Assembly (NCBI GenBank): GCA_002269645.1
Contig: NIVC01000368.1
Location: 186,001-250,000 of the forward strand
Direction: 5' to 3'
Length of the DNA stretch: 64,000 bases
DNA from: Macrostomum lignano
Taxonomy: Eukaryota
This document shows, piece after piece, positions 4,072-44,351 of the stretch. The notes under the pieces are model-generated. The model saw only the letters and a program-made list of their open reading frames with translations, did not search any database and was not told the DNA's origin. A program made the translations under genes and the position numbers. Numbering within the stretch: position 1 is the stretch's first letter; the number at the start of each line of letters is the position of its first letter.

Positions 4072-4235
4072 ATACCGTTCTGGTATATCCGCTCTCAACT
4101 AATATCGTTCTGATATTGTTCCATCTGATATCGTTTTGATATTGTTATCCCGCTTGATATCGTTCTGATATCTCAGCCCTACTCATCGATATCGTTCTGA
4201 TATCCCAATTCTGTTCATCAATATCGTTTTGATAT
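4072..4235 (+). promoter_or_regulatory. Array of six 15-nt hairpin repeats ATATC-GTTYT-GATAT with unique spacers
   Basis: Copies at 4072 (ATACCGTTCTGGTAT), 4102, 4128, 4157, 4189, 4221; spacers 11-17 nt; function unknown. Confidence 0.75.
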
Positions 4236-4257
4236 TCCGGCTACGGCAATCGTTTTG

Positions 4258-5334
4258 ATGGCCAGCGACCAACTGAGAGACGAGTTAAGTCTCAGCGCCA
4301 GCGATGAAGATTTGAGCAGTAGCAGCGACGAGAATGCTCTGCCAGCCCCAGAACGACAGCCAACGCGGCCCAATCCTCCCGGGGCCAGGCCTCGTCCGTC
4401 GTCTGTTGTGAAGATCGCCAACCCGCAAGATCGAGCTCAGCTATTGCAGCAGCAAGCGGAGGCTCCTGTCGAGGTCTCCCCGGAGATGGCGAGACGCCAA
4501 CCCCAAGGCAGTCATGCTGCCGTAGCCCTGCCTCAGAGTGCCGCGCCGAAACCGCATATTGCCCGCCGGCTTGGCAACCATCAGTCGCTAAGATCACGTC
4601 CGAGATCACCAGCTTCGCCGCCAAGAGACCCCAGACCGCGCCCAGCTTCGTCGCCAAGAGACCCCAGACCGCGCCCAGCTTCACCGCCAAGAGACCCCAG
4701 ACCACGCCCAAGATCACCTGTGAGACCGCCTCGAGATCCAGGACCGCCGCAGGACAGACCGCCGTTACGACCCCAGCATCAGGTTATGAACGGGGCGGCC
4801 GCCCCTATTGAGCCTCTGGAAGTGGAAGTTCCGCCACTTATGCAAGAACCCCCGGAAGTCGGGCCACTGCACGAAATTGGCGGTAATTTCAGCACCATTA
4901 TGACCAATATGCCTGAATCGCTCCGTGGCGAGTATCGTCGTCGAGTATCTGAAGTTAAGGCTTATCTAGTTCGAGTCGGGCGTTTCAGGATGGACGGACG
5001 GCCCTTCCCCTCGCGAGAGGATGTGCGGCCCACCGTCCAGGCCTTGCGACGCATGCGGCCCGAGCAGGCCATCGCCGCCTGGAGGCGCGCCGTAGCCTAC
5101 GCGTTGCACGACTTGAACCGAGGTTGGGTCAACAGAGCCCAATTGAGGACCGAAGTGCAGTGGACCGGTGAGGCCTGTGGCTGGCCTTATCCTGGGAACC
5201 TGCCGACTGAAATGATCCGGTACCTGAGGTACCTCAACAGAGCCCAATTGAGGACCGAAGTGCAGTGGACCGGTGAGGCCTGTGGCTGGCCTTATCCTGG
5301 GAACCTGCCGACTGAAATGATCCGGTACCTTTGA
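4258..5334 (+). CDS. Accessory ORF3 of element A (Pro/Arg-rich N half, helical C half), unknown function
   Basis: Open 359-codon frame (ATG at 4258) downstream of pol; putative splice acceptor TTTTTGACAG ending 4067. Confidence 0.7.
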   Translation: MASDQLRDELSLSASDEDLSSSSDENALPAPERQPTRPNPPGARPRPSSVVKIANPQDRAQLLQQQAEAPVEVSPEMARRQPQGSHAAVALPQSAAPKPHIARRLGNHQSLRSRPRSPASPPRDPRPRPASSPRDPRPRPASPPRDPRPRPRSPVRPPRDPGPPQDRPPLRPQHQVMNGAAAPIEPLEVEVPPLMQEPPEVGPLHEIGGNFSTIMTNMPESLRGEYRRRVSEVKAYLVRVGRFRMDGRPFPSREDVRPTVQALRRMRPEQAIAAWRRAVAYALHDLNRGWVNRAQLRTEVQWTGEACGWPYPGNLPTEMIRYLRYLNRAQLRTEVQWTGEACGWPYPGNLPTEMIRYL

Positions 5335-12976: not shown

Positions 12977-13583
12977 AGTGTCGCTGGCAAACCTAAGCGG
13001 TCATTCGCCCTCCATTTGAGTTCAGCAATAGAAAAATCTTCAGTCAAAAGCATTTTTCTTCAAAATATTTGCCTCGCAGCTGCAAACTAAATTGAAAATC
13101 GTCAGAGAGCTCTGCTTGGCTTCCAAGCCTCAGCCCTGCCCTCCCTCCCCTCTCCATCTCTCTCCCCTTGTGTCTCAGCTGCCGCCCCTTCACCCCTGCC
13201 CACTGACAATGCACTTGCTATGCCGAGCACGCAGCGACAGTCAGCTCTCATTGTTTAACTCAGCAGAGCTCGCAGCATCCCACTGCTCCTGCATCTCTCA
13301 CCCCGCTGAGCAGAGCAGCTGCCGGACCCCCTGGCACCCAATCAGGCCTCAAACAGCCGCTGGGTCAGAGAAGAGAATCGGCCTCAGTCCATTTAAACAA
13401 ATTTCTCTGCACAGGGAGAGCTCAGAGATTTCAGTCCGTGACAACGGGACTTTTGCTGCTGCTGCTGAGCTGGCAGGCAAATTCGCTTGAAGAAGAGCAA
13501 AGCACTCAGTTTGAAGCCGTGTGGAACAGCTGCGGCAGACAGCAGATCGGCAGAGAAGCGCTGCTAGGAGAAGCAGTGTAGCC

Positions 13584-14434
13584 ATGGCAACAGAGATGGA
13601 GCGGAAGCTGAGAGCAGCGCTGGAGGCTGGAGACAGCGAGGAGCTGCAGCGACTGTGTCGTGAGGTCGGCAGAAACATCGAGCTGGAGGTGGGCAGCTTT
13701 GAACATACCTTACCGAAGGTTCGCCAAATGCCGCTGGTCCATCACGTGGCCTGCAAGCCGGTGAGTTCGTCGTGCCTGGAGCTGCTGATTAACAGATTCG
13801 GACCCAGCTGTCTGACACATAGAAATGACAGTGATCAGACTCCAGTGCACTTGGCAGCCCAGCATCAGGACGAGTCTTGGATGGAGCTGGTTAAAGAGAA
13901 GGGAGGCAGAGGCTGCTTGAGAATTGCCGATAGATGGGGACAGACAATCGCTCACTTTGCCGCTATGAACGGAAAAAGCAACTCTTGTCTGAAGTGGCTG
14001 GTGAAGGAGCTCGGCAGCGACTGTTTCACAGTTCCTGACGAAGACGGAGACACGGCCGTTCATTTGGCCGCTCAGCATCAGGGCATCGAGTCGCTGGAGA
14101 TGATCAAGAGACAGATCGGAACTGACTGCTTTCGGCTGAAAGGACTGTGTGATAGAACAGCATTTCACATTGCTGCTGAGAAGTCTGACAATTCAAATCT
14201 GAAGTGGCTGGTGAAGGAGGTCGGCAGCGACTGTCTCACAGTTCCTGACGAAGACGGTAACACGTCCGTCCATTTGGCTGCTCGGTGGCAGCCAGTCGAC
14301 TCTCTTCAGTTCATTTTTGACCAAATCGGAGCCGAAATGTTCAGCTTGAAGAACAACAAGGGCAAAACACCGGCTGATGAGATTTTTTGGTGCCGCACAG
14401 ACCAGTCAGCAAAGCGGGTATGGATTTCAGCTGG
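13584..14434 (+). CDS. Ankyrin-repeat/kinase gene, exon 1 (ankyrin repeats)
   Basis: Repeated DEDGDTAVHLAAQ, GQTIAHFAA, RTAFHIAA, GNTSVHLAA motifs; GTGAGT donor at 14435. Confidence 0.85.
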
Positions 14435-14939
14435 GTGAGTCCTGACTGAGAACTGCTGCCTGAACTGCTGCCTACTGGAAATATTGTTGGCGAAAAGTCA
14501 TTGAAATTCTCAGCAGCGCCACAGCCAAGCGAGGGCGTCACGAATTTGTTACGGCAGCTCCTCATGGCACCTCCACCCTCCCCAAAGCGCCCCACCCTCC
14601 CTATAATTGGCGCCCCGACCCCCATCCACAGATCAATTTGCAGGAGGAGCTACCATGAAGGAATAGTATGGATGGCTAATCTAGCCTACAATGAAGGACT
14701 TTAGCACAAAGACAGTTTAAGTGCCTGTCGTCATGGTGACCCATCAATATTTAACGATTGTGAAACTCTTCGACTTTTTGTATAAAACTGCTTGATTGGC
14801 TGAGATGACTTATTGGCGATAAGCCACCTGTAATGCAAAAACTAGCAAAGCCGGAAGTGACACGGTGATACTCAATATCCTGGGACTCTCATTTTCTCCG
14901 TTCTGAGCTCAAAAGAGCATGAGGTGGCAGTGACGCAAA

Positions 14940-15414
14940 AAGGTGGTGATGCAGAAGGGTGGTGACGCAGAAGGGTGGTGATGCAGAAGGGTGCAGTGAC
15001 GCAGAAGGGTGGTGACGCAGAAGGGTGGTGACACAGAAGGGTGGTGATGCAGAAGGGTGGTGATGCAGAAGGGTGGTGATGCAGAAGGGTGGTGATGCAG
15101 AAGGGTGGTGATGCAGAAGGGTGCAGTGACACAGAAGGGTGGTGATGCAGAAGGGTGCAGTGACGCAGAAGGGTGGTGATGCAGAAGGGTGGTGATGCAG
15201 AAGGGTGGTGATGCAGAAGGGTGCAGTGACGCAGAAGGGTGGTGATGCAGAAGGGTGGTGATGCAGAAGGGTGGTGATGCAGAAGGGTGGTGATGCAGAA
15301 GGGTGGTGATGCAGAAGGGTGGTGATGCAGAAGGGTGGTGATGCAGAAGGGTGCAGTGACGCAGAAGGGTGGTGACGCAGAAGGGTGCAGTGACGCAGAA
15401 GGGTGGTGACGCAG
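14940..15414. repeat. Intronic minisatellite, 16-bp unit GCAGAAGGGTGGTGAT
   Basis: About 29 copies; the last CAG (15412-15414) gives an in-frame acceptor. Confidence 0.95.
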
Positions 15415-15887
15415 AAGGCTGAGTGACTCCAAAGTACTCAGAAAGCCCCAAGCAACACAAAACTCATCGAATTCCTTCACATCATGTTTCAGCGCCAAGA
15501 AGCAGCTGGATCCCAGCTTCACCGACTGGGACTTCATCCTGCAGGACGACAAGAAGCAGCTCATCGGCCGTGGTGCCTTCGGCAAGGTGTTCAAGGCCCT
15601 CACAGACCGCAACCAGACGGTGGCTGTCAAAGTACTGCCTCTGTGCCAAGCTCAACAAGGGAAGAAATACCGAGGAACTGAAGAAAAAACTTCTGATAGA
15701 GAAGCGGGGAGTTGACATCATCAAGCGACTCTCGCATCCCAACATTGTGCAGTTCCTCAAGTGCGAGCAGAAGTCGGATGGGCTGTACATCTTCACCGAG
15801 CTGGTCTCGGGTCACAGCCTCTTTGAGCTGATGCAGCGTCAGAACAAGCCGTTCAAGGAGTCCGGGGTCAGGGACTTCTCCAGACAG
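15415..15887 (+). CDS. Ankyrin/kinase gene, exon 2 (kinase N-lobe), one frameshift near 15645
   Basis: IGRGAFGKVF and VAVK in one frame; LSHPNIVQF and IFTELV in the +1 frame; donor GTGCGT at 15888; exon start inferred from phase. Confidence 0.75.
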
Positions 15888-16068
15888 GTGCGTCTCTGAG
15901 TTCTCTAGGATTGCCTGACATGGGTGGGATCAGTGTGGGATCAGCGTGAGATCAGTGTGGGATTAGTATGGGATTAGTGTGGGATCAGGTATGGAGTCAG
16001 TGTGGGTGGGATCCAGAATGATTTTATGATTTTAACAATTTTATGACTCAGAACTTCTCAACCTGCAG

Positions 16069-16554
16069 ATCTGCTCAGGCCTGAACTTCCTGCACTGCCA
16101 GCCGCAGGGCGCCATCTTGCACCGTGATATCAAGAGCTCCAATGCGATGCTCACAAACGAGGGTGTCATCAAGCTGATCGACTTTGGTCTCGCCAAGGAG
16201 ATCGTCGGTACCTGCGGCCTGAGCACAGGCGTCGATCCCAAAGGCACCTGGCACTTCATGGCGCCCGAGCTGTTCATGGGCGAGGACGACTCGATTCCGT
16301 ACTCAGCCAAGACCGACGTGTGGGCCTTCGGCTGCACCGTGTATGAGCTGACGGCCATGCAGCCTCCTGACGCGAACGTTCCGCAAAGCAGGATCGGCGT
16401 TTTGAGGTGCGGAGGGCGGGCGATGCCTCGGATTTCGGACGGGTTCTCAGCCGGCCTGAAGGACTTCTACCTCAGGTGCGTAGACTATGACCCGAGGAAG
16501 CGAGCGGACACCGCGGAGCTGCTGCGGCACAGCTTCCTGAGTGCCTCATCGTGA
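16069..16554 (+). CDS. Ankyrin/kinase gene, exon 3 (STE/MAP3K-like C-lobe)
   Basis: [34 protein letters not shown]; acceptor CTGCAG ending 16068. Confidence 0.9.
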
Positions 16555-18048: not shown

Positions 18049-20285
18049 ATGCACACTCAAAGAATCAAAGGCATCACGGCGCGAATGGAGCTGATTGACG
18101 GAGCGCAACCACAGTTCTGCAGAGCTCGGCTCGTGCCACTTGCGCTGGAGGAGAAGATTAACACGGAGCTCGACCGGCTACAACAGCTGAGCGTGAAAAA
18201 ATCAGACGATTTGCTACGCATGTGTGCGGACTATAAAATACATGTAAACAAAAAGATCAAGTCAGAGTCTTACCATATACCGTCGATTGAGTACCTGCTC
18301 TCTAAACTGAAAATGCAAAAAAGTTTGCAAAGATAGATCTGAGATCGGCGTATTGGCAAATCGCTCTGGATAAGGAGGAATTGTCCAACATCAACACATC
18401 CCGGGGCCATATCGCGTCACGCGTCTTCAAATGGGGATGAAAAATGCATCCTTTATATTTCAAAGAGCGATGGAGAGCATTTTGGCCGATCTCAAAGGCA
18501 TTCTGATTTACCAGGAGACTCGGCTGCTGGAAAAGAAGGTTACGATCAATGAGAGCAAATGCATCAATATGAGTGACGAGATCTCTTTCCTCGGCTTTAA
18601 GGTTTCCGCCGCTGGCATATGGCCAGACGATCGGTTGGTTGAGAAAGTGCGCCAATTTGCTCCGCCGACATCCAAAAAGGAGAATGAGCAGTTTCTCAGA
18701 CTCGTTAACTTCTTTGGGCGCCTGATCCCAGAGTTCTCATCAAAGGTCGCTCCACTTAACAAGCTGCGTAAGTCAGGCGCCGCCTTCGTGTGGACCGACG
18801 AATGCCAACGTGCATTTGACCAACCTAAAAAAGAGCTCTCTTCTCAGCCGGTCGTTCAGCCATACAGTCTTGATAAGGAAGCGACTTTGACCACCGATGC
18901 ATCCAAAGGGGCTCTTGCCGGTGTCCTGACTCAGGAGGGTCACCCTGTAATTTATATTTCCAGGACTCTATCGGAGGCCATTGTCTGGGCTGTCTCTCGT
19001 TTGAAGCATTACCTACAAGGTTGAAAGTTTGAGATCCACACTGACCATCAGCCGCTGCTCCGGCTCTATGGTGGCAGCATTCCTACCGGCACCTCGGCGA
19101 GAATAAGCAGATGGGCACTTTCGCTGATGCAGTTTAATTTCGAAATCAAATACATCCCAGGCTCAAAAATTCCTCATGCCGACGCTCTGTCTCGGCTGTC
19201 TTTTCTGAACGGCAAGCAAGACAAAGAACCCCCCGAAACAGCTCAGGCAATTAACTGCGTCACCTTTGAAACTTCGACTATCGACTCCACCCGCATTGCT
19301 TCAGAGTTGGCTGGCGATCCCCTCATGCCGAGAATTTTGAGCCGAATTCGCTCAGGTGATTGGAAAGGCTGTTCAGAGGCTGTTACCTTTCAAGAAGATT
19401 TCGGAGTGCCTGACGCTCGAGAACGGGACTACTGTACATGCGTCGACGAGTTTTTATCCCTCTGCGTCTTCGGATATAGGCCTTTAATGCCATCCACGAC
19501 ACCCACTCAGGCGTGGCTGCAGCCTATAGCCTTCTTTCGCTATCGTGCTGGTGGCCCGGCATGCAGAAGGACGTCGAGCAGTTCGTGCACCAGTGTTCCG
19601 TCTGCAATTGACTGCAGCCACGCCTATTGAAAATGAGGGATCACTGGCCACCCGCAACAATATCATTCCAGAGGGTCCACATTGACTGGGCATTCGTACA
19701 AGAAGCAGGAAATCTGCTAATTGTGGTTGACGCGCATACTCGGGTTGGATCGAAGCATTTCCTTCACCGGACAGGTCCGCAGCCAATGTAGTGAAGTCCT
19801 GGCTTCGGGCTAATGGAGCGCAAAAAATGGAAACACCCCCTACTCGCCGCAGTCGAATGGCACAGCTGAAAGAGCCGTTCAGACTGTAAAAAGGGCTTTG
19901 CAAGCTGGACCCAGTGACTAACCCACTCCGATTTCACCGCCTTTCTGCAGAAAGTCCTTCTCCACCATCGCAATTCATCCAACGCGCGTGCATGGTTCGA
20001 CGCCCGCTGAACTGGTCTTTGGTCGTCGGCTGCGCGTCCCGGTAGTTTCAACCTTCCAGCAAGGCGACCTCGTTGGCTACAAGGCAAAGCGGACACTCCC
20101 ACCAGAGATGCAGAATTTCTGATGACCCAGGGACAGAACACCTCCTGGTTGCTAGCGGACAATGCGCTTTGGTCAGCAACAATCAACTCGCGCCTCTGAG
20201 CCACAGGCTGCACAGGCCATACCGACACGGAGGAGCGAGCGAATTCGAATGGAACCCGACCGCCACAGGCCATAGAATCTGACAC
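18049..20285 (+). pseudogene. Decayed Ty3/gypsy (Mag-like) pol: RT, RNase H, integrase remnants
   Basis: DLRSAYWQI, MGMKNASFIFQRAM, TDASKG, TDHQPL, HADALSRL, RVHIDWA; stops, frameshifts, and the YxDD segment is deleted. Confidence 0.88.
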
Positions 20286-27400: not shown

Positions 27401-27574
27401 TGGCCTCTTTTACTCCGTCATTTTACAATGAAAAATGAATTTTACAATGAAAATATGGGGGAATGGGGGCTTTAGGGTGGGGAGATTCTTAATGGGGATT
27501 GATTTATATATCTAAACTTCTATAGCGGCATGGGGGTTCTATTGAAGATTTCCCAGTCAAAGCAATGCCGTTGC

Positions 27575-27735
27575 CTCGACGTCGCTAACACGTCGCAAAA
27601 TAACGTCGCCAAACTAGCCATTTTGTCGCGCGCGGCGACGTCGCCATTACGACCCCAGGCGACGTCAGAATTTCACGTACTGGCGACCAAACGGCGACCA
27701 TCTATTACAGATTGCTTAGCACCTTTAATATAGTG
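27575..27735. mobile_element. Isolated CACTA-like terminus
   Basis: Clustered CGACGTCGC/GGCGACC subterminal motifs ending in TAGTG at 27735; no partner end found. Confidence 0.4.
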
Positions 27736-28308
27736 CAAATCTCGAAATCATAATTCAATTAATTTTTACTAAGATTATAGATGAAATTAAACGAAGATTA
27801 ATAAGCTACCTCGCTCTGGTTAAATATCTTGATTGAATTTATAAATTATTCAATATAATTCAATTAAAAAGGTTTTTTGTTGGTTAATTCAGTTATTTTT
27901 ATCAGAAAAGTAATTTTTACATAGTTACACTCAAAGACAAATGATTTTTAATTTACAAATGCATTTTGAAGTGCAGATATTTCACTCACTGAGAAGGGTC
28001 AAAGGGACAATAAAAAAGTGTCAAACGAAATTGCTCCAGATTTCACAGTTAAACCTTACAACATGTTGGCAGCATAATTATTACTTAAATCGAACCATTT
28101 CCTTCTCATCAAGTCCGCTCACCAACATAATACTGCTAACAGCGGGAAAGCCCGCAGAAATGAGTGATACTAAAAATAACTACAGCATTCCGCTATTTCC
28201 AGCTGCGCAACCTTAGCCAATCCAGGAGAAGCGCTACTTTTGATTGAATTACATTGTTAACCATTTATTAGGCGCACAGAAACCGAGGACACCCGCAAGC
28301 TATCGGCA

Positions 28309-29289
28309 TTGGTCGCCCAGATGGAGGCGACGATCAAGACAGTGAACAACAGACCGCAACAGCCATGGAACAATCCACGCCAGCAAAGCGGAAACGCCGC
28401 GACAAGCTGCCAGTTATGTCACAAGCAGGGACATACGGCAGACAGGTGCTATCAGCGCAACCGACAGCAAGGCGCTAGCCCAGGAAGCAGCCGTCAACAG
28501 CCACAAGGAGCCAGAGGCACCAGCAGAAACTGCAACAATTGCGGTAAGCCTGGCCATTTGGCCGCTCAGTGCCGACGTTATTGTCACCATTGTAAGCAGA
28601 AGTCTCACTGGACAGTTGAATGCGACCGCCCGAGCCCCCAGAGACAGGGCCAACCGGCTCAGCGTCAAGGATACCCGAGCAACAGGAATAACGGCTATCA
28701 AGGTCCTCAGCACAATAACGGCTACCAAGGTCCTCAATACAACAACGGCCGACCAAATCAGCAACGGCAACCACGACAAATCGCGGAAGTAACCGAGGAA
28801 CAACCTCAGCAACAGCCACCGGCAGACATTCTAGCTGTGTCCACCCAGGAAGAAGAGAAAACAGCGGAACCAGTGGTGACTCGCGACGACATCATTCAAG
28901 CTCGACGACAGCTCCGCAAAGCAGCAAAGGTCAAGATTGGCTACAATATAGCGGTGACACCAACACCGCAACCACGGCAAACCGCAGAAGTAACCAAGGA
29001 GCAGCCTCAGCAACAGCCACCGACGGACACTCCAGCAGAGTCAACCAAGCAAGAAGAGACAGTTACGGAACCAGTGGTAACCCGCGACGACATCATTCAA
29101 GCCAGGCGACAACTTCGCAAGGCAGTCAAGGTCAAGATCGGCCACATCACGACGGCGACACCAACACCGCGCTCCGAGAGCGACCGGACTGAGAAGCAAG
29201 AGCGACCACGAAAGATCGAGAAATGTCCTGACACTGACGAGCCCAAGCCACAGATAGCGATTCGACAGCCGAGAACTACACCGACATGA
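28309..29289 (+). CDS. gag: Gag C-terminal part: three CCHC zinc knuckles and a duplicated 67-aa module
   Basis: CQLCHKQGHTADRC, CNNCGKPGHLAAQC, CHHCKQKSHWTVEC; ends at TGA 29287-29289. Confidence 0.9.
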   Translation: MVAQMEATIKTVNNRPQQPWNNPRQQSGNAATSCQLCHKQGHTADRCYQRNRQQGASPGSSRQQPQGARGTSRNCNNCGKPGHLAAQCRRYCHHCKQKSHWTVECDRPSPQRQGQPAQRQGYPSNRNNGYQGPQHNNGYQGPQYNNGRPNQQRQPRQIAEVTEEQPQQQPPADILAVSTQEEEKTAEPVVTRDDIIQARRQLRKAAKVKIGYNIAVTPTPQPRQTAEVTKEQPQQQPPTDTPAESTKQEETVTEPVVTRDDIIQARRQLRKAVKVKIGHITTATPTPRSESDRTEKQERPRKIEKCPDTDEPKPQIAIRQPRTTPT

Positions 29290-31209
29290 AGCCAAAGCCG
29301 ACGAACAGCCTCAACCACAGGATGGCTGCTGCGAATACTACTGCTCGCACTGTTCTGCACCGCGGCTGGCAACGCGACAACGGCACAGCACAGCAGCTAC
29401 GTGGACACACCGCTCTACTGCCCAGAAGCGAACAGCCTTCAAGCCTTCAAATTGCCTCCGGACATCGAATGCACAGTCCCGAGTAGCATTCAACAGCATC
29501 GGCAACCGATCAACATCACAGTCTACAAGGAGAACCAGGTATCACACCGGTCTACACTGAAGATATGTTACCGAGAGACCTACACGTTCACGAGTAAGCC
29601 AAAAGATTCCGCTCTTAACCGTCTTTCAACGGAGATGGTAAGTCCAGCCATGACTGTTACTGTGCAACAACATTCAGTTTCGAAGGACGATTGTAAAACA
29701 TGGGAAGAAAACACCCGAACCCAAGATGGGACGTTAGAACCAGGAGCTAAAACTATGGGACAAGCCAAACGATTCATTACCCATAAGTGGACAACCCAGG
29801 AATTGGAACCTACAGCCAGCACAGCTCAAACCTTTACTCAAACAGTGTCAGTCCTAATCACCCAGGTCTCATTCTTTGTGGAAGAGAAAAAGATGTCTTC
29901 GTTAGCCCTCCCTATAGGTCAATGCGACTACAAGACAGGAACCTGTACCACGACTACTAGCCTCACGGCAGAGAAGGACTCGCCACTGAACCGACAGGCA
30001 CCAGACAGACTCTGGGCCGTAATGGAATACTATGATCTCAGCTACACAGTGAGAGGAGATAGACAATACCGCCTAGTATGGACACCCAGCGCAGAAATAG
30101 ACTGCCCCTATCAAACAGACAGATTCATTCAAGGCAAAATTCACACTGGATGGTTCATGTCTAACGACGCTACGTTTGCCCTCACATTCAAACACCCACC
30201 TCAGACTAAGGACTTAAAATGTGGAGACACGACAGTAAAGCTATACAAGTCGGAACAAGGTAAACTAGTCCAGGTGCACGGCTCAGACCAAGAGTTTCGC
30301 AGCATAATTGAAGGCTCATTTAACAATTCAAGCACTGCTAAGAGACCAAAACGAGACCTCACATCGGACACAACGCTAGCAGCAAAATTACAAGGGCTAG
30401 AACTCACAATGGAAGACAGAATAGGCGACCTTACTCGAAACATGATACTACAACAATGCAAGCATCAGCAAACACTGTTTCGGTACATAAAAGATCTCTT
30501 TCTCATGCAGCCCACCCTAGCAGCGCGCACTTTGTTCAAAGACAGCCAATTAAAAGCCACCACGCTAGCACAGCATGTAGTCATTTCTAAGTGTCTACCC
30601 ATCAGAAACTTTCGTTTTCACCAACCAAGATGGGATGAGAATATCTGCTTTACCAAACCACCAATTGCCTTCACTATATTCAACATGAACCACACAGGCT
30701 TTCTAGATATCAGAACCCTGGAAGTCCAAAAGGAACACCCGCCGTTTCACGATTGTTCTAACCAAACGTCGTATTTTCTACCAAAAGGAGACGAAATCTA
30801 CAAAACAGACCTCAACTTTACGAAATTTACTGTGCAAACGGTCACTAAGCTAGAAAGAGAAGCGTGGGGGGTAACCCTCATAAAACCCCCAGAGATTCAG
30901 CATGTCATATTCACTCCTGATGGAGACATCAGGATAGCCGATCTCAAAAGCCCTGTCACAGTACACGACCTGTACAACCAGCTAAGTGACCAGAGAGAGT
31001 TCTTAAGAACTGTTTTCAAACTGCCCAAGTCAGAAACCTCTCACTCTATACATCTTCCACCGTTAGATGCCACCATAGCGGAAGGCACCTTTGATCCAGC
31101 AAGTTGGCTACCATGGCTAGGCATGCGAGTGAATCTTTTCGATATCGCTGTAGGAGTAGCTGCCATTGGATTCTACATATATCTTTTATACCAAATGATC
31201 CTTATCTGC
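29290..31209 (+). CDS. env: Env-like class III (gB/chuvirus G-like) fusion glycoprotein region of the polyprotein
   Basis: Signal-like WLLRILLLALFCTAAG (29323-29370); N-glycosylation sequons NIT, NNS, NHT, NQT, NFT; furin site RPKR (30343-30354); gB-like helix AAKLQ...QCKHQQ...QPTLAARTL...ATTLAQHVVISKC; TM 31144-31209. Confidence 0.8.
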
Positions 31210-31499
31210 CACAGACTCAACAAACAAAAGTACCAACGTCCTGGCATCCGCACGATCCAGCGCAAAGCTGCTGCAAAGCAAGAACAGCAGGAGCTACAGG
31301 AGTTAAGAGCACCGCTAGTAACGAACTCGACAAGCCAGAACACGCGGCAGGAGACCACGACAACCAGACAGGCACCACAGCGCCCGCCACCGTGGACGCC
31401 ACCAGCACCAGCATCAACAGGACTCTACCCGAAGATAGAGTCCAGTTGGCCACCTCCGATGGTGGCGACGATCAACAACGGCCAGAAGCAGAAGTACAC

Positions 31500-34400
31500 A
31501 ATCACCCGACTTCAAGTGGGAACGCGATCCTGCCGAGCCCTGATCGACAGTGGAGCCGAACGATCCTTAATCGACGAAACCACAGCAAAGCGATACGGCA
31601 AGACCTTCAAGCCGGCCACAGTTGAACTGCAAGGAGTACAAGGCTCACGACTACAGCAATCCGGCATGATCAACCTCCCTGTGGAAGCTGGCGACACCAC
31701 GGCTGACGTTGAGTTCCATGTTATTCCTAATTTGAGTTCAGGAACTTATCAAGTCTTATTAGGCATCGATTACTTATCTCAACTAAATCAGGGCGTGCTC
31801 GTAAACTATCAGCAACAGAATATCCATCTCAACGGAAAATGCTATGACATCCTCGCTATCACTACAAAAGAACCCGTTAACTGCATCAGATTAGTCTCTA
31901 CAGTCAATCTCAATCCATGGGAAACAACTCGAATTTCCGCAAGAGCCATCGCCAGAGAGAAACTACCTCCAGCTATGCTTTTCGAACCCAACGAACGTAT
32001 CCTGGAGAAGAAACCCATTTGCCTTACACCCGAATTGGTATACCCTGACGAGTCAGGAGAGGTTCAAGTCATCATTTCAAACGAATCGGCAACCCCAATG
32101 ACACTATATCCAGACACCAACATAGGATCTTTCGATACAGAAATCCAAGCCTTTGAAATTGCTGAAATCCAGTCAGAAACCCCAACAATGACGGAACAAG
32201 AATTCAAGAACGCCATTGATCTCAAAGGATCCAACCTGACAGAATCCCAGAAAGAACAGCTCATTAAGGTTCTCTGGGACAACAAGAAAGCCTTTTGCCT
32301 ATCCGAGGAGGAAATAGGATACACAGATGTAGCGAAACACGAGCTTCACATTAAGCCTAACGTGGAGATTAAGCTCAACAAACGATACCCAATCCCATAC
32401 CAACTCACGGGAGAACTCCAGAAGATCATCGATAGAATGGAAATGCAAGGAATTCTTAGAAAAGCAGCCACCCCGTACATCTCACCAATTCTACTGGTCA
32501 AGAAGAAACCGGAATCGCCTCAAGCCAAACCAGTGTACCGTCTCTGTGTTGATTTTCGGGACCTCAACCAAATCCTGGTCCCAGAAAGGCAATGTATGCC
32601 CCGAATCCCAGACCTCTTAGCCAAATTAAAGGGATCAGAATATTTCACTACTCTCGACATGGCGCAAGCATTTTTTCAAGTGGCGCTAGAAGAAGAAAGT
32701 CAGAAGTATTGTGGCATCTCCACGCCCGACGGACAAACTTACGTCTTCACCAGAGCCCCAATGGGTCTACAAACCTCACCAGCAGCCCTCTCTAGAGCAG
32801 CTAGCTTAATCCTTCAAGGGATTAACAGAGTCTCAACATACGTAGACGACCTACTTGTCTTCAATGAGACATTTGAAGACCATCTCGAGACATTGAAAGC
32901 TACACTAGAAGCTCTAGGAAAGTACGGCATGAAATTGAAATTACAAAAGTGCAAATTCGCTAAGCCCACAATCACATTCCTAGGACATAAGATAGACAAA
33001 AATGGAATACAGATTGATAGAGCTTTAGTCGACAAAGTGCAGAAGGTACCAAAGCCACAAAATGTCACACAGCTCAGATGTTTCCTAGGACTCTGCAATT
33101 TCTTTCGCAAACACGTACCTAACTACGCCAAGAAAGCCAAGCCACTCACAGACCTGCTTAAGGGCACACCGAACACTAAGGCTCAAGCATCCAAAACCCC
33201 ACTAAAGTGGACAGAAGAAGCGACCCAGACCTTTGAAGACATGAAAAAATGGATAGCAGAAGATCTCAGGCTCACTCACCCTGACTTTAATAAACAGTTC
33301 ATTGTCTCCAGCGACGCTTCTACAAAAGGCATAGGCGCAATGCTCTCACAGAAAGATGAGACAGGAAAAGAAAAACCAATAGCATTCACGAGTCGACAAC
33401 TGAGAGAGGCAGAGACAAGATATGCGGTCACCCATTTAGAACTCTTAGCCGTCTTTTACGCATTCAAGACATTCGAACAATTTCTGTACGCAGCGCAAAT
33501 ACCCACATTGCTAAGAATAGATCATGCACCACTCAGAGGTCTACTCACAGGGAAAACCCTGCGGAACAATCAAGTACTCAGATGGCTTCTATATTTACAA
33601 CAGTTTCAAATGCAAATTGAGTACGTCCCAGGCGCATCCACCAAACACGCAGTCCCAGATGCACTCTCAAGACTATATGAGGACCAAGAGACACCCATTA
33701 ACTTTGTCACGATCAAGCACCCGATACCACACCTGCAAGCCTTAAAAGAGGCTCAAGCAGAAGACCCATTCTGCCAAGGCATTCGAGCACTATGGGAACA
33801 AAAGCCCATGGATGACAGCTTAGCTATGAGATACAAAAGACACATCCAGCGACATCTATCGGACTATGCGGACATTCACGGAATCATCCACAGGACAGCA
33901 GATCACACCCAACAAATAGTGCTCCCATTCAAGTACCGTGAAACAATCTGCCACTCGTTACATGCACTACCACTAGCAGCGCATTTAGGCTTTGACAAAA
34001 CCCTAGAAAGAATTAGGCGACACTATTTTTGGATCTCAATGGTTTCCGATATTCGAACCTTTTGTCAAGACTGCATGGATTGCGCTAAGAACAAATCTGG
34101 CCAACTGCATAAGGGACTCATCCAAATGCCTGAAATTCCGATGAAACCAATGGACAAGCTATCAGTAGACCTAGTAGGACCCATGGTCCCCACGAAAATC
34201 CGGAACGAGACCGTCACCCACATCCTGACTATCCTGTGTTGTTTTTCAAAATTCGCCTTTGCATTCCCGATTCCAGATCTATCAGCAGAAACCACAGCCG
34301 AAACTTTGTTCCAAGTCTTCTGTACGTTTGGAATCCCGATGGAAATTTCCACCGATAATGGAAAAAATTTCACGGCATCGCTATTAGCTGAAGCTCTAGA

Positions 34401-35160
34401 AATTCTGGGAGTCAAGCACATCTTCTCGTCTACCTACCATCCGCAAGCAAACCACGTAGAGAGACTACACTCTACCCTACATAACATGCTTAGACATTAC
34501 ACTGCGGAGAATCCAAACGAATGGCATAAATATCTATCAGCCACAATCTACGCCTACAATACAGCCAAGCAATCCTCTTCAACCTATTCTCCCTTCGAAT
34601 TGGTTTTCGCGAGGAAACCCCTGATGCCCACAGAGCTCACAACTCAGCTGAACCTAGTAAGATACATGGATGAGCCGTCCTACGCAGCCCGAATGCAAGA
34701 AGCTATCACCCTGGCTAGAGACATAGCCAGACACCATCTCAAAGTGGCCCAGGAAAAGAACACAAGCAGAGCTAACAAAAACCGAATGGCCCCTACATTA
34801 GCCATAGGCACCAGAGTGATGCTACAGATCCCAATGAGACAGGGAAAGCATCAAGCCAAGTTCACGGGTCCATACGAAATTGTGAAAAGAAATAGTGCCA
34901 CGTCCGTAATGATAAGGAAAATTGACGATCCGACTCAAGAACCCTTTCAGGTGCACACGGACAGGCTAAAGCCAATAGCATCGCCAACACCCAAGGTACT
35001 GCTCCCCGATCTGCGCCCGAGTGATCCGCGAAGACTGCAACGCCAACACAGGCAACTGTTCAGCAAGGAAGTGGGCGTACAAGCTGATGACGAGACGCTC
35101 GCGGACACAGTTCGAAAGAAGTACAATCTGAGGAGCAAACCCATACTCCTAGACAAATGA
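31500..35160 (+). CDS. pol: Pol region (aspartic protease, RT, RNase H, integrase), in frame with env
   Basis: ALIDSGA (D at 31546), LDMAQAFFQV, YVDDLL (32839), SDAS, LHALPLAAHLG..CQDC, SVDLVGP, STDNG, HVERLH, YNLR; no stop from 29290 to 35157. Confidence 0.95.
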
Positions 35161-35319
35161 TGTCAGGAGATGGGGGAGAGTACAGAGACTATAAAGACTA
35201 TTTTATTTACGTATTCATTCGTTGGCGTGCTGTGCACACTAGATATAGATATCCACACTAACTATTTACTCAAATATCAATACTTAATTTTACCCTTCTA
35301 AAATTACTCATTATACCAG

Positions 35320-36102
35320 ATGTATGACCGACAGCTCGATACGCTAGATGACTGTACCCTGGGAGACGAAGATACCCAGACACCGTGTCCTATAGTTCGA
35401 CCTCTCTTCAAGCCAACATCTCACACCGAAACCGATGACCCTAAGTGGCCCGAGCAAGATATGTCAACATGGACAGAACAACAGCTGGACAAGCTACGAC
35501 AGGAATGGCAACGACGCCGACCTACGCTCCCACGACAAGCAAGCACGGCAACATCGGCGAGCAACGATTTCCACCAGGCTAAAACACTCGCAGAGCGATT
35601 CCAAACAGCTCTGGCGGCACAGACGGTAGTTCAAAGCAAGCCGGCGCGGTATGATGAAACGAAACTGTTTGACATTCACCAGCAGATGCTTGACATGCCA
35701 CTAATACCCGCTAACATCGTCACACACCTTACTACGCGACGCATCCTGTCAGATCCTAAAGACCCACGCTGGTTACTCTCTGACTATTCTATCTTGAACT
35801 TCAACACGACGCTCTTTTTCCTCTACGACGACACAGCTGCGTTCTCTTGTCTCCGTATCATAGTATGGAACAGCAGGGTGACGACAACCCTAATCCATCC
35901 TCGTGGACCGACCAGCACACTATCACTCCAAGCCGACATGCTTATCACTTATCTACTCAACACCTTAAATTATCACGGCATCGAAATCAAACCCAAGGAA
36001 CGGCAATCGATAGCCACGATTGCGTATTCACCGGCCAACCTACAATGGCACCACCTTTTCACAGCGTTGAAAGCAGCAGAAGGCCCCAACCTGGACCCTT
36101 GA
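35320..36102 (+). CDS. Accessory ORF3 of element B (260 aa), unknown function
   Basis: ATG immediately follows a polypyrimidine/CCAG acceptor (35318-35319). Confidence 0.7.
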   Translation: MYDRQLDTLDDCTLGDEDTQTPCPIVRPLFKPTSHTETDDPKWPEQDMSTWTEQQLDKLRQEWQRRRPTLPRQASTATSASNDFHQAKTLAERFQTALAAQTVVQSKPARYDETKLFDIHQQMLDMPLIPANIVTHLTTRRILSDPKDPRWLLSDYSILNFNTTLFFLYDDTAAFSCLRIIVWNSRVTTTLIHPRGPTSTLSLQADMLITYLLNTLNYHGIEIKPKERQSIATIAYSPANLQWHHLFTALKAAEGPNLDP

Positions 36103-37226
36103 GGTGCTAGGAAGGCCCGGTTGCAAGAGAACAAAAAGGATAATACAAGGGATGAAATACTGCCCTAGGGTTGTAGCGAATTGGTGGGATACCAATCCGC
36201 CTCATCCCTGAGGCACCTTCACCCACAGGTACGCTCCTTTGTTCAATGCAGCCTCACAGCAGGGCGGTCTACTCTTGGGATAAGACTAGACCAAACGAAA
36301 GTGAATTTTTGAAGCCAGCTACAACGCTATATAATCTAACACTAACCACATTAACCCGGAAACAAACTGTATCCACAAATATTCCTTATTCTGATAATTT
36401 TTGTACCTGAATTTTATCTCTCGATATATCCACCATGTTACGCTTTACTCTCAACGCCGTGATATTCCACGCCCTCCGACACTTATATTAGACCATTTAA
36501 CGACTGCACACTAACGTTTTACTGCCTTCTGCAGATTTCTAACATCTTATATCTTACTATAGCAGAAAACACACCGATAACAGATGAATTAAATCCTTGT
36601 TAGCACAAGGATTTCGAAAAAAGGGGGAATCATATAAGAGTTAGAAATCTGAAGTTTTGACCCTAAGTTAGAAGATAGGTAGAAATTTATGAAAAGCCCA
36701 GGCGCAGTGAAGGGCGAGGCAGAAGAGTACAATGGAACCCCTAGATAGCTATTAGAAAGGCGAACAGAAGCAGCGTTAAGATAATTAATCAACTGTCAAG
36801 TCAATTTGAATAGCCGAATCTAACAAAGCCTCTTTCCATTCCAGTTAGTAGCGTCACCCCGCCGCAGGCACAATGGCGACTAAACCGGCCGGGAAAAGCA
36901 AACTAAGCAGCAGCCTGACTTAGAGAACAACGCGGCACGCGGCATCTTCTGGCGCACCCTGAGGGAGAAAACGTGAGGCCCACCTACAGACTCCTACCCA
37001 ACCCGAAGCTGCCCGAGAAGGCCAGATCAACCCCAAGCTGCTTGACAACCGAGAGAAACAGAGGACTGTTTAACCATTCATGGACAGAGTGTAGAGACGG
37101 AAAACTAAGCACTTTTTCTATAATCTTTCTATCCCAAATTTTATCCAACTCAACACATAGATTTGCGAAAGCCCGAATAATCTCTAACCTTCACACTTAG
37201 CAACCAACTAGAACTAACTAAATTCA

Positions 37227-37750
37227 TGTACAATTAGGGGACTGAGTCCCAGTTTGTTATTGCTCAAAACCCCCCGCCGTTGCTAACAACGCGAAGACAC
37301 CCCACCGGCGGCGGGGGAGGCCAAACATGCTAATTGGTACAAATAGACGCTCATCTCAAACTGGAGCGGCGCCTCGTTTTTTTCCTGCGCAGTTTCGATC
37401 TTGAATTGCTCCATTTGAATTAGCTTCTGGATTATCCGGTTGGCAGAAACCAGAGTCTCAAATCGATTATTTGCCTTAACTATTGCGTAAAACGAATACT
37501 AGACAGAATCGAACTCAGCTTAGATACTAGGATATCCCGTCAGTTTATACGGTCTTCTCTGACGGCCTGATAGGAGAGACTAAGAGCTGTAAGAACCTTA
37601 GACCGCTAGACATCTATCTTAAGAAAGTGAGAACACGAACTCAAAGGCCCCAGAGAAAGACTCGTATACTAGCTAAGTAGTGGCGCCATTATACGCTCGT
37701 ACAAACATAAATATGGCGAATAGGTTTTAGCAAATTAATAAGAACATACA
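37227..37750. repeat. Candidate LTR of element B
   Basis: TGTA...TACA termini on a GC-balanced segment before AT-rich flank; no plus-strand PPT seen. Confidence 0.35.
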
Positions 37751-40922: not shown

Positions 40923-41986
40923 CCCAACTCCCATAGGGACAGTGCTGGGTCAAAACAAAAGAATGCCAAAATAAGAAATAAAGGCCTAGCTAAAATGTGT
41001 TATACAATTCAATGACAATGAGTTGATCTATTTTAAGATGTGCATAGTTACTTATCCCATTTATCTAATTAATTTTAATAAAATTTTAACAGAGGCAGAA
41101 GGCTTTTTATTTCAATGGATAGAATGGCAGCAAAGAGTTTATGCTTCTTTGTGGGTATATTTATATTTACACAAACTGCGCAAGATTAAGGGGCCTAGAG
41201 AGATTTGAAAAAAGGTGGCATGGCATAATAAGCTATGCTAACCCCCAGCTTAGTGAGCTGGCTAGCCTGGTGCATAACCAGTTTTACAACATGCCAATTT
41301 TAGTGAGCAACAAAGACTAGGCAAAGCCTCTATATGGAATCAAGATAATAGAATAAGATAAGATAATAGAAAGTTAAAACCCATGCTGCCATTGTCAATA
41401 ACCTGAATACAAAAAATGCTTTAGTTTTATAACACAATATATTGACCTAAATATTTTAATGAGAAAGTTTTAAATAATAATTTATTGTAAGATATATGAC
41501 AATAATATAATAATACCTTAAAAACCAGGTTGTTTCATTTCAATGGCCATGGCATAATTTCAACTCATATTAAACATGATTACATGAAATTGATTGTTAA
41601 TACACATTATTTGAGCCTGATGTGAAAAAGTGAGATCCCCAAAATGCCAAAACAAGCTGAAATTTAATTCATTGAATTCAACTATGCTGTTTAGCTTGCA
41701 ATATTTTTCCTTTATCACTTGGGTATTATAAAAAGCAGACATATAGTTTAACAAATATTTAATGTTTTAAACAAAAACCTTTTTTGTTCTATTTAGCTAT
41801 CTAAAATTGGAATAAGGTGTAAAAAATAAGCTGTTGAGCTTTTATTAGAACGAATATTGGTAAGATAATCTTAATAAAAATCTAGCTAAGAGAATCTTAG
41901 TACTCTTGGAAAATCATTTACTTAAATAATTTTAGTATAAAATTTTGTCATACCCTCAAAACAATCATTTTTTTAACTTTTATGAA

Positions 41987-43950
41987 ATGGCTTCTAGACA
42001 AACAGCAAATCGCTACATCCGTGAATATCTGTTGACTCTGATGTCAGCAGACAGCACTGCTAATTGTGTAGAGGATGAGAGTTTGTCTGAAGTTTCTGCT
42101 TCATTTCAACTTTCTGAAGCTGAAGAGTTTGCGAATCCGCACGTGTGGAAAGACCTGGCTCCAGATGCTGGTGAAGACAATTCGGAAATCCCATATTGCT
42201 ACTCGCACGAAAGTAGTGGTGAATCTTCTGATACAAGCGATGACGAGTCAGGTTCTGCAACAAGCAATCCGCAAACAAGCCGCCCTTCGCTGCCGGCGAA
42301 GCTTCTGACTTTCATGCTGATATTTTCTGTTAGCAAAAGAGCTATGCAACACCTTTTAGTAATTCTGAACGAGGAGGGTTGCAATGTACCGAAGTCGGTC
42401 AGCACTTTGAAACGCTATTGTCAACCTATTTCACATGACCTTTTATCTGTCGCATGTGGTGGCCAATTCGCCTACTTCGGTATTATGAACAATATTCGTT
42501 TTTGCTTCGAACGCCAGCTTTTAAAGCTCAATGATCACTTCCAGAAGTTGACAATATTAGTCAACTTTGATGGGGTTCCCGTGTACAAGAGCTCGAAAAT
42601 GTGTCTATGGCCCATTTTGCTTGCCATTAAAGGTGTTGATTTATCTGTCCCTTTACCAATCGGAGTTTTTTGCGGCACCAACAGGCCACCATTGAGTACG
42701 TATCTTGAGAGTTTTGCTCAAGAGTTGCGCTCTTTAATGGAAACTTACGTTTCCATTGCTAATAAAGCTATAACAATCGAACGCTGCATTATTATTGCTG
42801 ACGCACCTGCCCGTGCGTTCATTCAAGGAATTTACAGCCATTCGGCTAGACTCGCATGTGGATATTGCAAAATTGAAGGCTCTCGTATTGAAAACCGTAT
42901 GTGCTTTCCTTATAATCAATATGAGCCACGTACCAACGACGCTTACATGTCCATGCGTGAAAGTAACCAACTTGTATCTTCTCCATTACTCGGCATTGTC
43001 AATTTCGTGGAAGATCTCCCCCTGAATACATGCATTCGGTGTGTCTAGGTGTTGTGAAGCGTTTGTTTTCTTTATATGTTTCTTCTATTAAGGGTATTAA
43101 GTTACCGTGCCGATTGTCTGCTGTTCAGAGAATTCATCTTTCGCAGCTAATGATTCAAGTTTCTAAGTGCTTGCCCCGTGAGTTTCACAGAAAGCTCAGA
43201 AGCCTCGACGAATTCGAGCACTTCAAGGCGTGTGAGTTTAGGACTTTAATTGTGTACCTCGCTCCCGTTTTGTTTCGTAAGTTTCTACCAGCTCCTTATT
43301 TTGACCACCTGATGCTATTGCATGTAGCAATCTTTTGCTTTGTTTCACAAGAGCTTTCTACTTCTCTGTTTCATCAAGCATCTTCTTGTATTACACTTTT
43401 TTGCCAGAGAGCTCCAGGATTATACAAAGGTGCTCTGCAATCTTTTAATGCGCATCTGTTATCCCACATGCCTCATTTTGTAGAATCACTCGGTCCATTG
43501 GATCAGTGGTCTGCATTTTTTTTCGAAAACTACAACGGAGTTTTGAAGCATCGCTTAAGGTGCACATCAAATATTTTCATGCACACCATAAATACTATGT
43601 CTCACATTCGAAACGCTTTTGTTACTACTACTCCTCGCCCGCTATACTTTTCCTGCGCGTCGCCGGACAATTGTTGTATTACTCAATGTGGTCATGTACT
43701 TGCTATTTCAGCTCTATCTATCGAGTATGGGCGCACAAAAGTTATTGGTAAAATTTTTCAATTTGTTAGAGACATGTACTCTTTTCCATATAGCTCTTCA
43801 TCAATAGGCATTGGTATATATAAACTGACAAACAATAGCGTTTATGATGCCACGGCAAAGTCCAAATGTATTCTGATACCACGTGAGAGCAATGAGTATT
43901 TCGTTATTCCTCTCGCCAATCCTGATTTGGCTCTCTTTTCGCCATCCTAA
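41987..43950 (+). CDS. CACTA/EnSpm transposase, split by a single-base frameshift at the C-run near 43018-43022
   Basis: NFDGVP, IADAPARA, H..RLACGYC, EYMHSVCLGVVKRL, FKACEFR, FFENYNG; adding one C gives LPPEYMH. Confidence 0.88.
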
Positions 43951-43970: not shown

Positions 43971-44351
43971 ACTTCGGGTGTGTCATAAGTAATGCCACTG
44001 CATCCTTCTGTCTAAAGTATGTAGGCATATGCACTTAAGGATGGTCCAGCTGCAACGTATAATTCACCAAAATCTCAGCAAGACGCCTGCGCCAAGCAGA
44101 TTCGCATGGACTTTTCCAAAAGGAGTTTTCGCAAAGTATGAAGATGTCAACAGGCCGTGTTGCACTGGTTCCGGCAGCTGGAGGAAAAACTGGAGGAAGG
44201 CTGAGTTGGAGAAGCTGTATGAGCACTGCCAGGGGTCGATTGATATTGGGGGGACACTGTGTTGTTGATAGATACGGTTTTGTTCATCTGCGGTTGTAAG
44301 TTTGTCTGTTTTCACATCACTCAGTGACATTTCTTATGACACACCCGAAGT
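43971..44351. mobile_element. ~380-bp TIR-bounded insert inside the CACTA element
   Basis: Perfect 19-bp IR ACTTCGGGTGTGTCATAAG / CTTATGACACACCCGAAGT, extending to ~30 bp. Confidence 0.6.

Follow-up and report, generated by a model that had tools for sequence, protein, structure and literature searches.

The window, a stretch of 64,000 nucleotides from contig NIVC01000368.1 of the flatworm Macrostomum lignano, holds a copy of an LTR retrotransposon, probably of the Ty3/gypsy group. A gene for a viral fusion glycoprotein lies between gag and protease, in frame with Pol, as a preliminary description had proposed and as the open reading frame, the order of the Pfam domains, and the predicted fold bear out (Table 1). 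From 28261 to 35160 the domain order was gag fragment, TGA, signal-like segment, ectodomain, transmembrane (TM) helix, protease (PR), reverse transcriptase (RT), RNase H (RH), and integrase (IN). The upstream frame (28261–29289, 342 aa) contained three CX2CX4HX4C knuckles and ended at the TGA, and the long ORF continued in the same frame without a stop for 1,956 aa (29290–35160), in agreement with the open span of 29290–35157 reported earlier. On this ORF, Pfam placed an aspartyl protease at aa 738–833, RVT_1 at aa 1072–1235, RNase H at aa 1307–1439, and integrase at aa 1546–1718. Beyond the long ORF, the element continued as far as 37668 and included another ORF, a polypurine tract, and the 3′ LTR.

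Table 1. Features of the retrotransposon copy in the window.
Feature	Position	Strand	Basis or remark
Start of the copy	28109		Without 5′ LTR or primer-binding site
Remnant of 5′ untranslated leader	28109–28281	+	95% identity to the leader of two-LTR copies, ~860 nt behind their 5′ LTR
gag, 3′ half	28278–29286	+	CCHC knuckles at 28408–28623, then Gln/Pro/Thr-rich linker
Premature stop, private to the window copy	29287–29289	+	Sister copies and run contigs differ
Internal signal-peptide-like segment	29317–29367	+	Hydropathy; basic residues, hydrophobic core, small residues
Predicted Env ectodomain, class III (gB / nyamivirus-chuvirus G type)	29368–31143	+	Pfam PF24664, profile search, model, Foldseek
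Furin-type site RPKR	30343–30354 (aa 352–355)	+	Inside the Env ectodomain
Transmembrane helix, then basic residues and ~95-aa tail	31144–31209	+	Hydropathy
Aspartic protease (DSGA)	31501–31788	+	Pfam RVP / gag-asp_proteas
Reverse transcriptase (YVDD) and RNase H	32503–33606	+	Pfam; Ty3 RT best solved relative
Integrase (H2C2, core, C-terminal part), to the stop of the long ORF	33925–35160	+	Pfam
Accessory ORF, 260 aa, 3′ of pol	35320–36102	+	Open in near-identical copies
Polypurine tract	36616–36629	+	Seen in the sequence, directly 5′ of the LTR
3′ LTR, 1,036 bp, termini TA...TA	36633–37668	+	96% identity to both LTRs of three two-LTR copies

The three CCHC knuckles described earlier were present, but only the 3′ half of gag remained, because about 1.27 kb including the capsid region was deleted at ~28280. 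Sister copies extended ~1,270 nt further in the 5′ direction than the window gag, and a contig of one other sequencing run (X2) carried 1,276 nt at the deletion joint. Inside the gag linker, an internal duplication of ~200 nt was observed (28764–28969 and 28965–29170, ~80% alike). Lacking a promoter LTR and the capsid domain, and with a stop before env, the window copy is dead. Two short overlapping frames (28719–29192 and 31095–31625) recurred among the copies; given the 98% likeness of the copies and the low T content of the strand, they were not counted as genes.

The order PR-RT-RNase H-integrase, the Ty3-like RT-RH, and the LTRs, target duplications, primer-binding site (PBS), and polypurine tract fit the Ty3/gypsy group (Metaviridae), to which the element probably belongs. 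Against solved structures, Ty3 RT was the best of 205 matches for RT-RH (E 4.7e-56); the next enzymatic polyprotein gave 6e-39, and the Pol of foamy virus 6e-37. This ranking is a coarse test, since the PDB holds few retrotransposon RTs.

Four sister copies in the assembly were 97.95–98.6% identical to the window copy over 5.2–8.2 kb. The search for independent copies with two LTRs, suggested in the preliminary description, gave three among these four. All three showed LTR pairs 99.9% alike, 5-bp target duplications, and a PBS in which 13 nt pair with the 3′ end of tRNA-Glu(CTC) plus CCA. The family measures ~13.8 kb with LTRs of 1.04 kb (1,036 bp) and a tRNA-Glu primer. The usual LTR termini are TG...CA; those of the family are TA...TA. 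The 99.9% likeness of the LTR pairs shows very recent movement of the family. None of the five near-identical copies in this assembly kept an uninterrupted frame from the first ATG. The breaks were mostly single bases, many of them in homopolymers, and may be assembly errors or real decay.

The TGA between gag and env was reported earlier as part of the layout. It is there in the window copy, but it is not a feature of the element: an in-frame stop at this codon was found in 0/4 sister copies, contigs of 4/4 other runs also differed from the window copy at the codon, and the divergent families of the genome showed no stop between gag and env. Its position, in frame and directly 5′ of the signal segment, would suit a programmed read-through stop that makes Gag and Env-Pol separate products and sets their ratio. 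That reading is highly improbable and, for the family, is refuted by the sister copies and the run contigs. The TGA is private to the 5′-truncated window copy, from which it is shown, at the level of predicted reading frames, that the family encodes one Gag-Env-Pol polyprotein (Gag-Env-PR-RT-RH-IN in one frame). The earlier proposal of a capsid-envelope-enzyme polyprotein was in fact strengthened, because the sister copies lack the stop between gag and env.

A programmed −1 frameshift was also rejected. In the four sequences scanned over the families, no slippery heptamer lay between nucleocapsid and protease in the window family; one was detected in the env of a sister family and several in a distant family, and none was common to the families. 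The contigs of two presumed-RNA runs that cover the element showed no splice joint inside the ORF; such contigs cannot show transcription.

The fused layout was observed well outside the near-identical copies. Genomic env matches lay in stop-free frames of 2,370–2,866 codons in 17 of 77 cases, and CCHC, env, and protease shared one frame in 9 of the 30 loci retrieved. Among 61 database relatives, CCHC preceded env in 18, pol domains followed env in 10, and pol preceded env in none. Families sharing the junctions were 26–62% identical in env. In this genome, at least three to four lineages of env share the fused frame. The nearest named relatives were Macrostomum lignano proteins of 2,852–2,859 aa, a length that open frames of the assembly also have. 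The same fused layout was seen in a Globodera protein (2,517 aa). In an RT tree of 10 rows (no outgroup, midpoint root), the window RT and the Macrostomum rows formed a group (95/96) that left out the Globodera row. Identity to the Globodera element over RT-RH was 32%.

These relatives also bear on whether the junctions arose by a chimeric assembly or by a single event in which a viral glycoprotein gene was inserted into a gypsy element, as the truncated state of the window copy and its position among repeats might suggest. The same junctions occurred at four other loci, in families only distantly alike in env, and in a nematode protein, and both were bridged by contigs of 4/4 other runs from 4 studies. 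The chimera and the one-off insertion, both raised by the preliminary description as possible refutations, are thereby refuted, and such an origin has the lowest probability of all the readings considered here.

The Env part was described earlier as a Cys- and N-glycan-rich ectodomain with a signal, a furin site, and a TM helix, and this description held. Kyte–Doolittle hydropathy gave a hydrophobic core at aa 13–23 and a TM helix at ~aa 619–640; the stretch between them contained 12 Cys, 7 N-glycosylation sequons, and RPKR. Pfam Monjiviricetes_fusion (PF24664) matched aa 292–493 (E 2.8e-6), with 28.3 bits against a cut-off of 27 when aa 1–717 were scanned alone. In a profile search of the ectodomain against solved structures, 52 of 52 matches were herpesvirus gB (best E 1.7e-21); a single-sequence search against the same structures found nothing (best E 0.66). 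The ectodomain structure model (pLDDT 77.7) matched gB (E 5.8e-22) and nyavirus G (E 3.8e-27, the top viral fold match) in Foldseek. TM-scores to gB were 0.36–0.40 for the monomer model, which counts against our overall reading given below. By profile, model, and Foldseek, the ectodomain is predicted to have the class III fusogen fold, like herpesvirus gB and nyamivirus G, and the fusion-protein fold sought after the preliminary description was thereby recovered.

The signal-like segment was equally placed in divergent families. It showed a K/R bias on its N-terminal side in 3/3 families, and 4–6 K/R followed the TM helix, again in 3/3. This charge bias fits an N-in/C-out signal and a C-in TM helix in all three families. 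Across families, env pN was 0.25 against a saturated pS of 0.78, so by this ratio env appears to be under purifying selection. Two putative fusion loops were assigned from hairpins of the structure model. Their tips carried no aromatic residue in the window family, which counts against the overall reading, and loop 1 occurred in two versions among the copies, one of them aliphatic. Another family in the genome showed Trp/Tyr-rich putative fusion loops.

The 260-aa ORF 3′ of pol was open in 5/5 near-identical copies. At the same distance from env, a sister family carried open frames 42–43% identical to it, and against a diverged copy its dN/dS was ~0.31. A Pfam match to APP_E2 was below threshold and was treated as chance. 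There was no usable match in the ESM Atlas, and none of 756 protein-database candidates (lengths 143–455 aa only) scored. The single-sequence structure model (pLDDT 39) was unusable.

Taken together, we consider it probable (roughly 85%) that the locus is a copy, truncated at its 5′ end and interrupted by one stop, of a Ty3/gypsy family that transposed recently and belongs to the published GAG-ENV-POL kind with a gB-type Env. For this family we infer a polyprotein mechanism. Gag would be synthesised in the cytosol, the internal signal segment would direct Env into the ER lumen, and the TM helix would halt transfer, so that PR-RT-RH-IN, forming the tail of Env, would lie in the cytosol again. 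Signal peptidase would separate Gag from Env, furin would cleave at RPKR, and the element's own protease would release Pol and trim Gag once polyproteins cluster on the membrane. With the enzymes as a cytosolic Env tail and Gag ahead of the signal segment, Gag and Pol would thus start tethered to the Env-bearing membrane. Such tethering would couple assembly to budding and could allow passage from cell to cell, probably out of somatic cells into the germ line, in the manner of Drosophila errantiviruses. A single frame implies a 1:1:1 ratio of Gag:Env:Pol, which counts against this reading; in most retroelements the ratio is not 1:1:1.

Alternatively, Env may no longer be a fusogen and may be retained as a membrane anchor and scaffold, gathering Gag and Pol at the ER for intracellular assembly, with movement of the element only within cells. 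The aromatic-poor putative fusion loops, one of which varies between copies, would agree with this, as would the need of herpesvirus gB for partner glycoproteins and the open question of entry by GAG-ENV-POL elements (PMC13524379, available passages). However, a mere anchor would not require the ectodomain, its cysteines, or the furin site, and the whole 590-aa ectodomain with its 12 Cys and furin site is kept, apparently under purifying selection across families; the Trp/Tyr-rich loops of the other family also argue against it. We regard a purely anchoring Env as unlikely and retain the polyprotein reading with a fusogenic Env.

A bolder extension of that reading is tentative and, in our view, somewhat more likely to be wrong than right. 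The elements would be enveloped metaviruses that pass between flatworm cells and assemble in a way not yet shown for any retroelement. Their single polyprotein would thread through the ER membrane, where the Env signal segment would hold the capsid, and a gB-type spike would bear the enzymes on its cytosolic side as a tail, all three parts in a 1:1:1 ratio. The 3′ ORF, which the two closest families have kept, would encode a new accessory factor, such as one for RNA export, of which the CERV of Cer1 is an example (PMC10309623, available passages). If this is true, several such families have been recently mobile in one genome, and the route could be observed in a laboratory animal.

A dedicated literature search found no paper on a Macrostomum gypsy LTR retrotransposon with an envelope. 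Among the matches listed, only PMC13524379 contained the term for a gag-env-pol layout, and none that for gag-env-pro-pol. The "undescribed lineage" of the preliminary description does not stand: Ty3/gypsy elements of the order GAG-ENV-POL with gB-type env are in print for Nematoda, Bryozoa, and Platyhelminthes (Chary and Hayashi, eLife 2026, PMC13524379, citing Sacco 2022). In the available passages, these HSV/gB-type errantiviruses share with the window family the gene order, a gB-type Env flanked by a TM helix and by a signal peptide or a further TM segment, the Ty3/gypsy pol, a multicopy state with LTRs, and flatworms among the hosts; several copies at ~98% identity are likewise described there, as are the four copies here. 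Hydrophobic fusion loops in domain I are described for them; the putative loops of the window family are aromatic-poor, with loop 1 aliphatic in one version. The same passages do not discuss in-frame gag-env-pol fusion or processing. Of the 9 flatworm rows in Supplementary file 1 of PMC13524379, only one is from Macrostomum. This element, Mlig_errantivirus_2, has an LTR of ~864 bp, a span of 10.6 kb, and another PBS, against 1,036 bp, 13.8 kb, and a tRNA-Glu PBS in the window family, and by these sequence features the two appear to be different families. Since the layout is already known, what is added here is a further family and no new kind. The value lies in the material, very recent movement and coexisting fused env lineages, for the study of polyprotein cutting, assembly, and transmission.

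Non-canonical nematode endogenous retroviruses, as far as the available text describes them, have env before pol and an RNA-virus-type glycoprotein captured by a metavirus (Sacco et al. 2022, J Gen Virol, doi 10.1099/jgv.0.001739). They share env-before-pol with the window element, whose Env has nyavirus G as its top viral fold match, but their hosts are nematodes, whereas its nearest named relatives are flatworm proteins; the nematode Globodera element, at the RT-RH identity given above, was not grouped with it in the small unrooted tree. The nematode elements reportedly have one continuous gag-env-pro-pol ORF, a nyamivirus-like env, and small extra ORFs. Tas is a BEL/Pao element with a gB- or chuvirus-type env. 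Mosquito BEL/Pao elements also carry such env genes (Dezordi et al. 2020, as cited in the available passages of PMC13524379). The env of Tas and of the mosquito elements is of class III and belongs to the same broad family as that of the window element. Their pol is of the BEL/Pao type and their env lies 3′ of integrase, whereas the window env lies 5′ of protease and the window RT-RH is, among solved structures, closest to Ty3. Structural polyproteins of flaviviruses and alphaviruses have a cytosolic capsid, an internal signal sequence, a luminal glycoprotein, and cytosolic enzymes, with class II fusogens. The topology proposed for the window family would resemble theirs by analogy, without homology and with a class III in place of a class II fusogen; if it is right, the family would be a case of a retroelement using the polyprotein strategy of flaviviruses.

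The 342-codon frame at 28261-29289 (+) held three CCHC knuckles and ended in a TGA, past which the identical frame stayed open for 1,956 codons, to 35160 (+). A frame scan, Pfam and a hydropathy scan showed that the gag-TGA-env-pol frame had been described accurately in its domains by the preliminary description. Between the signal-like core and the TM helix, 12 Cys, seven sequons and an RPKR motif were observed.

Features of the window copy (aa positions refer to the 1,956-codon long ORF)
Feature	Position	Strand	Basis or remark
Signal-like hydrophobic core	aa 13-23	+	hydropathy scan
Monjiviricetes fusion-protein match	aa 292-493	+	Pfam
TM helix	near aa 619-640	+	hydropathy scan
Protease	aa 738-833	+	Pfam
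RT	aa 1072-1235	+	Pfam
RNase H	aa 1307-1439	+	Pfam
Integrase	aa 1546-1718	+	Pfam
260-aa ORF	35320-36102	+	3' of pol, usual place of env
3' LTR	36633-37668	+	end of element

The TGA is a lesion private to the window copy. None of four sister copies elsewhere in the genome has a stop at this codon, and contigs from 4/4 public runs (four studies; one run could be the source of the assembly) differ from the window at this site. One sister copy showed a 2,458-codon frame from the capsid region to integrase, yet it was frameshifted in 5' gag. The others were interrupted elsewhere, mainly by single bases and often in homopolymers; an unbroken copy was not seen in this assembly, and the single-base breaks may be real decay or assembly errors. 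The family thus encodes one Gag-Env-Pol polyprotein.

The element is bigger than the span first assigned to it, and the window copy is damaged. Its 5' limit (~28109) lies within the leader, and it lacks ~1.27 kb containing the 5' half of gag, as well as ~1.06 kb of 3' untranslated region near 36487-36588. At the first gap, a contig of one public run (X2) had 1,276 nt present. The four sister copies showed 97.95-98.6% identity across 5.2-8.2 kb, and one full copy spanned ~13.8 kb. Three of the four had two LTRs, each pair with one mismatch in ~1,040 positions, and a flanking 5-bp duplication; a primer-binding site (PBS) followed their 5' LTR, and their 3' LTR was preceded by a purine tract. The PBS gave a 13-nt pairing with tRNA-Glu(CTC), for which 32 pattern matches were found, one verified by ARAGORN. 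Searching the genome with 27500-37500 as query gave at least 43 matches, a lower bound from 39 scored of 287 candidates. Many further LTRs of this family, solo or partial, occur in the genome (about 25 matches, 89-97%), and the termini of the window LTR were TA...TA.

An env between gag and protease could arise from a chimeric assembly or from a one-off insertion. The first was ruled out by contigs of 4/4 runs, which bridged both the gag-env and the env-protease junction. The ectodomain matched 77 genome places (22-100% identity), of which 17 lay in stop-free frames of 2,370-2,866 codons. CCHC, env and the protease motif shared one frame in 9 of 30 loci cut out (26 with a frame long enough to score; scan reach 1.5 kb each side of env). 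Among 61 database relatives, some of them gene models that may be artificially joined (one, P0006, clearly so), CCHC preceded env in 18 and pol domains followed it in 10, while pol ahead of env was found in 0/61. Pfam on 22 longer relatives agreed with the gag-env-pol order, and of ten relatives looked up, those with a name were proteins of Macrostomum lignano (2,852-2,859 aa) and one of Globodera rostochiensis (2,517 aa). These further loci and relatives ruled out a one-off insertion, so the placement of env noted from the sequence alone is real. At least two further multicopy families carried env within 2,480-2,866-codon frames (contigs C247, C270, C1672, C4280 and C106, C4296, C1470, C1639, C2112). 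Several of their copies scored identically, a sign of very recent spread.

The Env is a class III fusogen. As a single sequence, the ectodomain found no relative among solved structures. A 45-sequence profile had 52 matching chains; every one was a herpesvirus gB, the best at E 1.7e-21. In the AlphaFold2 monomer (mean pLDDT 77.7, pTM 0.52), the beta hairpins were long and a central helix of 46 residues directly followed the furin site. Against the PDB, the best Foldseek matches were post-fusion forms of gB (E 5.8e-22; TM 0.36-0.40); among viral models, nyavirus G led (E 3.8e-27), ahead of glycoproteins from other mononegaviruses, chuviruses, herpesviruses and entomopoxviruses. The envelope glycoprotein proposed earlier thus has a fusogen fold. 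Substitution counts show that env evolves under purifying selection (dN 0.013, dS 0.071 versus a near copy; pN 0.25, pS saturated versus the sister family).

The putative fusion loops, two hairpin tips by our own assignment, lacked aromatic residues in the focal family, and loop 1 had two versions among copies, both found in other runs too. These two observations count against full fusion competence of this Env. In a distant family, the same tips were rich in Trp/Tyr. The loop 1 variant, a 12-nt length and sequence difference at window 29602-29632, splits the family into the window copy and that on contig C1524 versus three other copies. A ~40-residue insert in domain I-II (~aa 222-262, long ORF), between a CxxxxGxC motif and the next strand, was common to all env families of this genome. 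Schmidtea rows in the part of the PMC13524379 supplement consulted had a 39-column gap at apparently the same place.

By domain order and best solved relative (Ty3 RT), the Pol appears to be of Ty3/gypsy type. The RT grouped with Macrostomum rows (95/96), apart from a nematode row, in a 10-row tree that, having no outgroup, neither roots nor dates the lineage; identity to any row was only 32-37%. A second, unrelated Ty3/gypsy Pol (RT, RNase H, integrase) lies at 452-3817 (+) and shares 32% identity with the focal Pol in RT-RH. It is followed by a 377-codon Pro/Arg-rich ORF at 4201-5334 (+) that had no Pfam match, so a 3' accessory ORF is present in this gypsy element too. A third gypsy-type element, a decayed RT-RNase H with an in-frame stop, lies at 18374-19630 (+). 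Elsewhere in the window, an ankyrin-repeat ORF followed by Ser/Thr kinase pieces, interrupted by a tandem repeat, resembles an ankyrin-kinase gene from its translation (13515-16554, +). Two overlapping ORFs at 41936-43950 (+) resemble a frameshifted DNA-transposon transposase, presumably CACTA/EnSpm-like by its motifs, near an inverted repeat pair at 43971-44351.

The 260-aa ORF was open in 5/5 near copies, with dN/dS of about 0.31 versus a diverged copy. At two sister-family loci, open frames 42-43% identical to it stood at equal distance from env. No homologue was found in Pfam, ESM Atlas or the protein database (0 of 756 candidates of 143-455 aa), and a single-sequence model (pLDDT 39) yielded no fold.

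The single frame, domain order, fold and recent transposition are established for the focal family. In 3/3 families, basic residues precede the signal segment and 4-6 K/R follow the TM helix. Under the positive-inside rule, this charge bias would leave Gag in the cytosol, place Env in the lumen and return PR-RT-RH-IN to the cytosolic side. Release of the parts would then fall to signal peptidase, furin and the protease of the element itself. Before cleavage, Gag and Pol may be tethered to the Env-bearing membrane, a simple coupling of packaging to budding. The cost would be a 1:1:1 ratio; weak tests found neither a shared slippery site nor, in run contigs, a splice joint that would alter it. 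A single frame is workable because Cer1, in the part of the source consulted, runs from gag to pol without a stop (PMC10309623). Transmission might run from soma to germ line, on the model of Drosophila errantiviruses.

Sacco et al. 2022 reportedly described one continuous gag-env-pro-pol ORF. Theirs was the first report of the flipped order in nematodes, according to the consulted part of an eLife 2026 survey of errantiviruses (PMC13524379). There, errantiviruses of Nematoda, Bryozoa and Platyhelminthes have HSV/gB-type env only, in the order GAG-ENV-POL, and are not monophyletic. The 'undescribed lineage' suggested by the preliminary description is therefore of a kind already in print, flatworms included. 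The focal element is real and well supported, and is new at the family level. What makes it of value is the proposed polyprotein route, together with its orphan 3' ORF and a genome in which several such families have recently been active. Likeness to a flavivirus polyprotein is an analogy only. The survey's table, as far as consulted, holds nine flatworm elements, and its one Macrostomum element differs from the focal family in LTR length, span and PBS.
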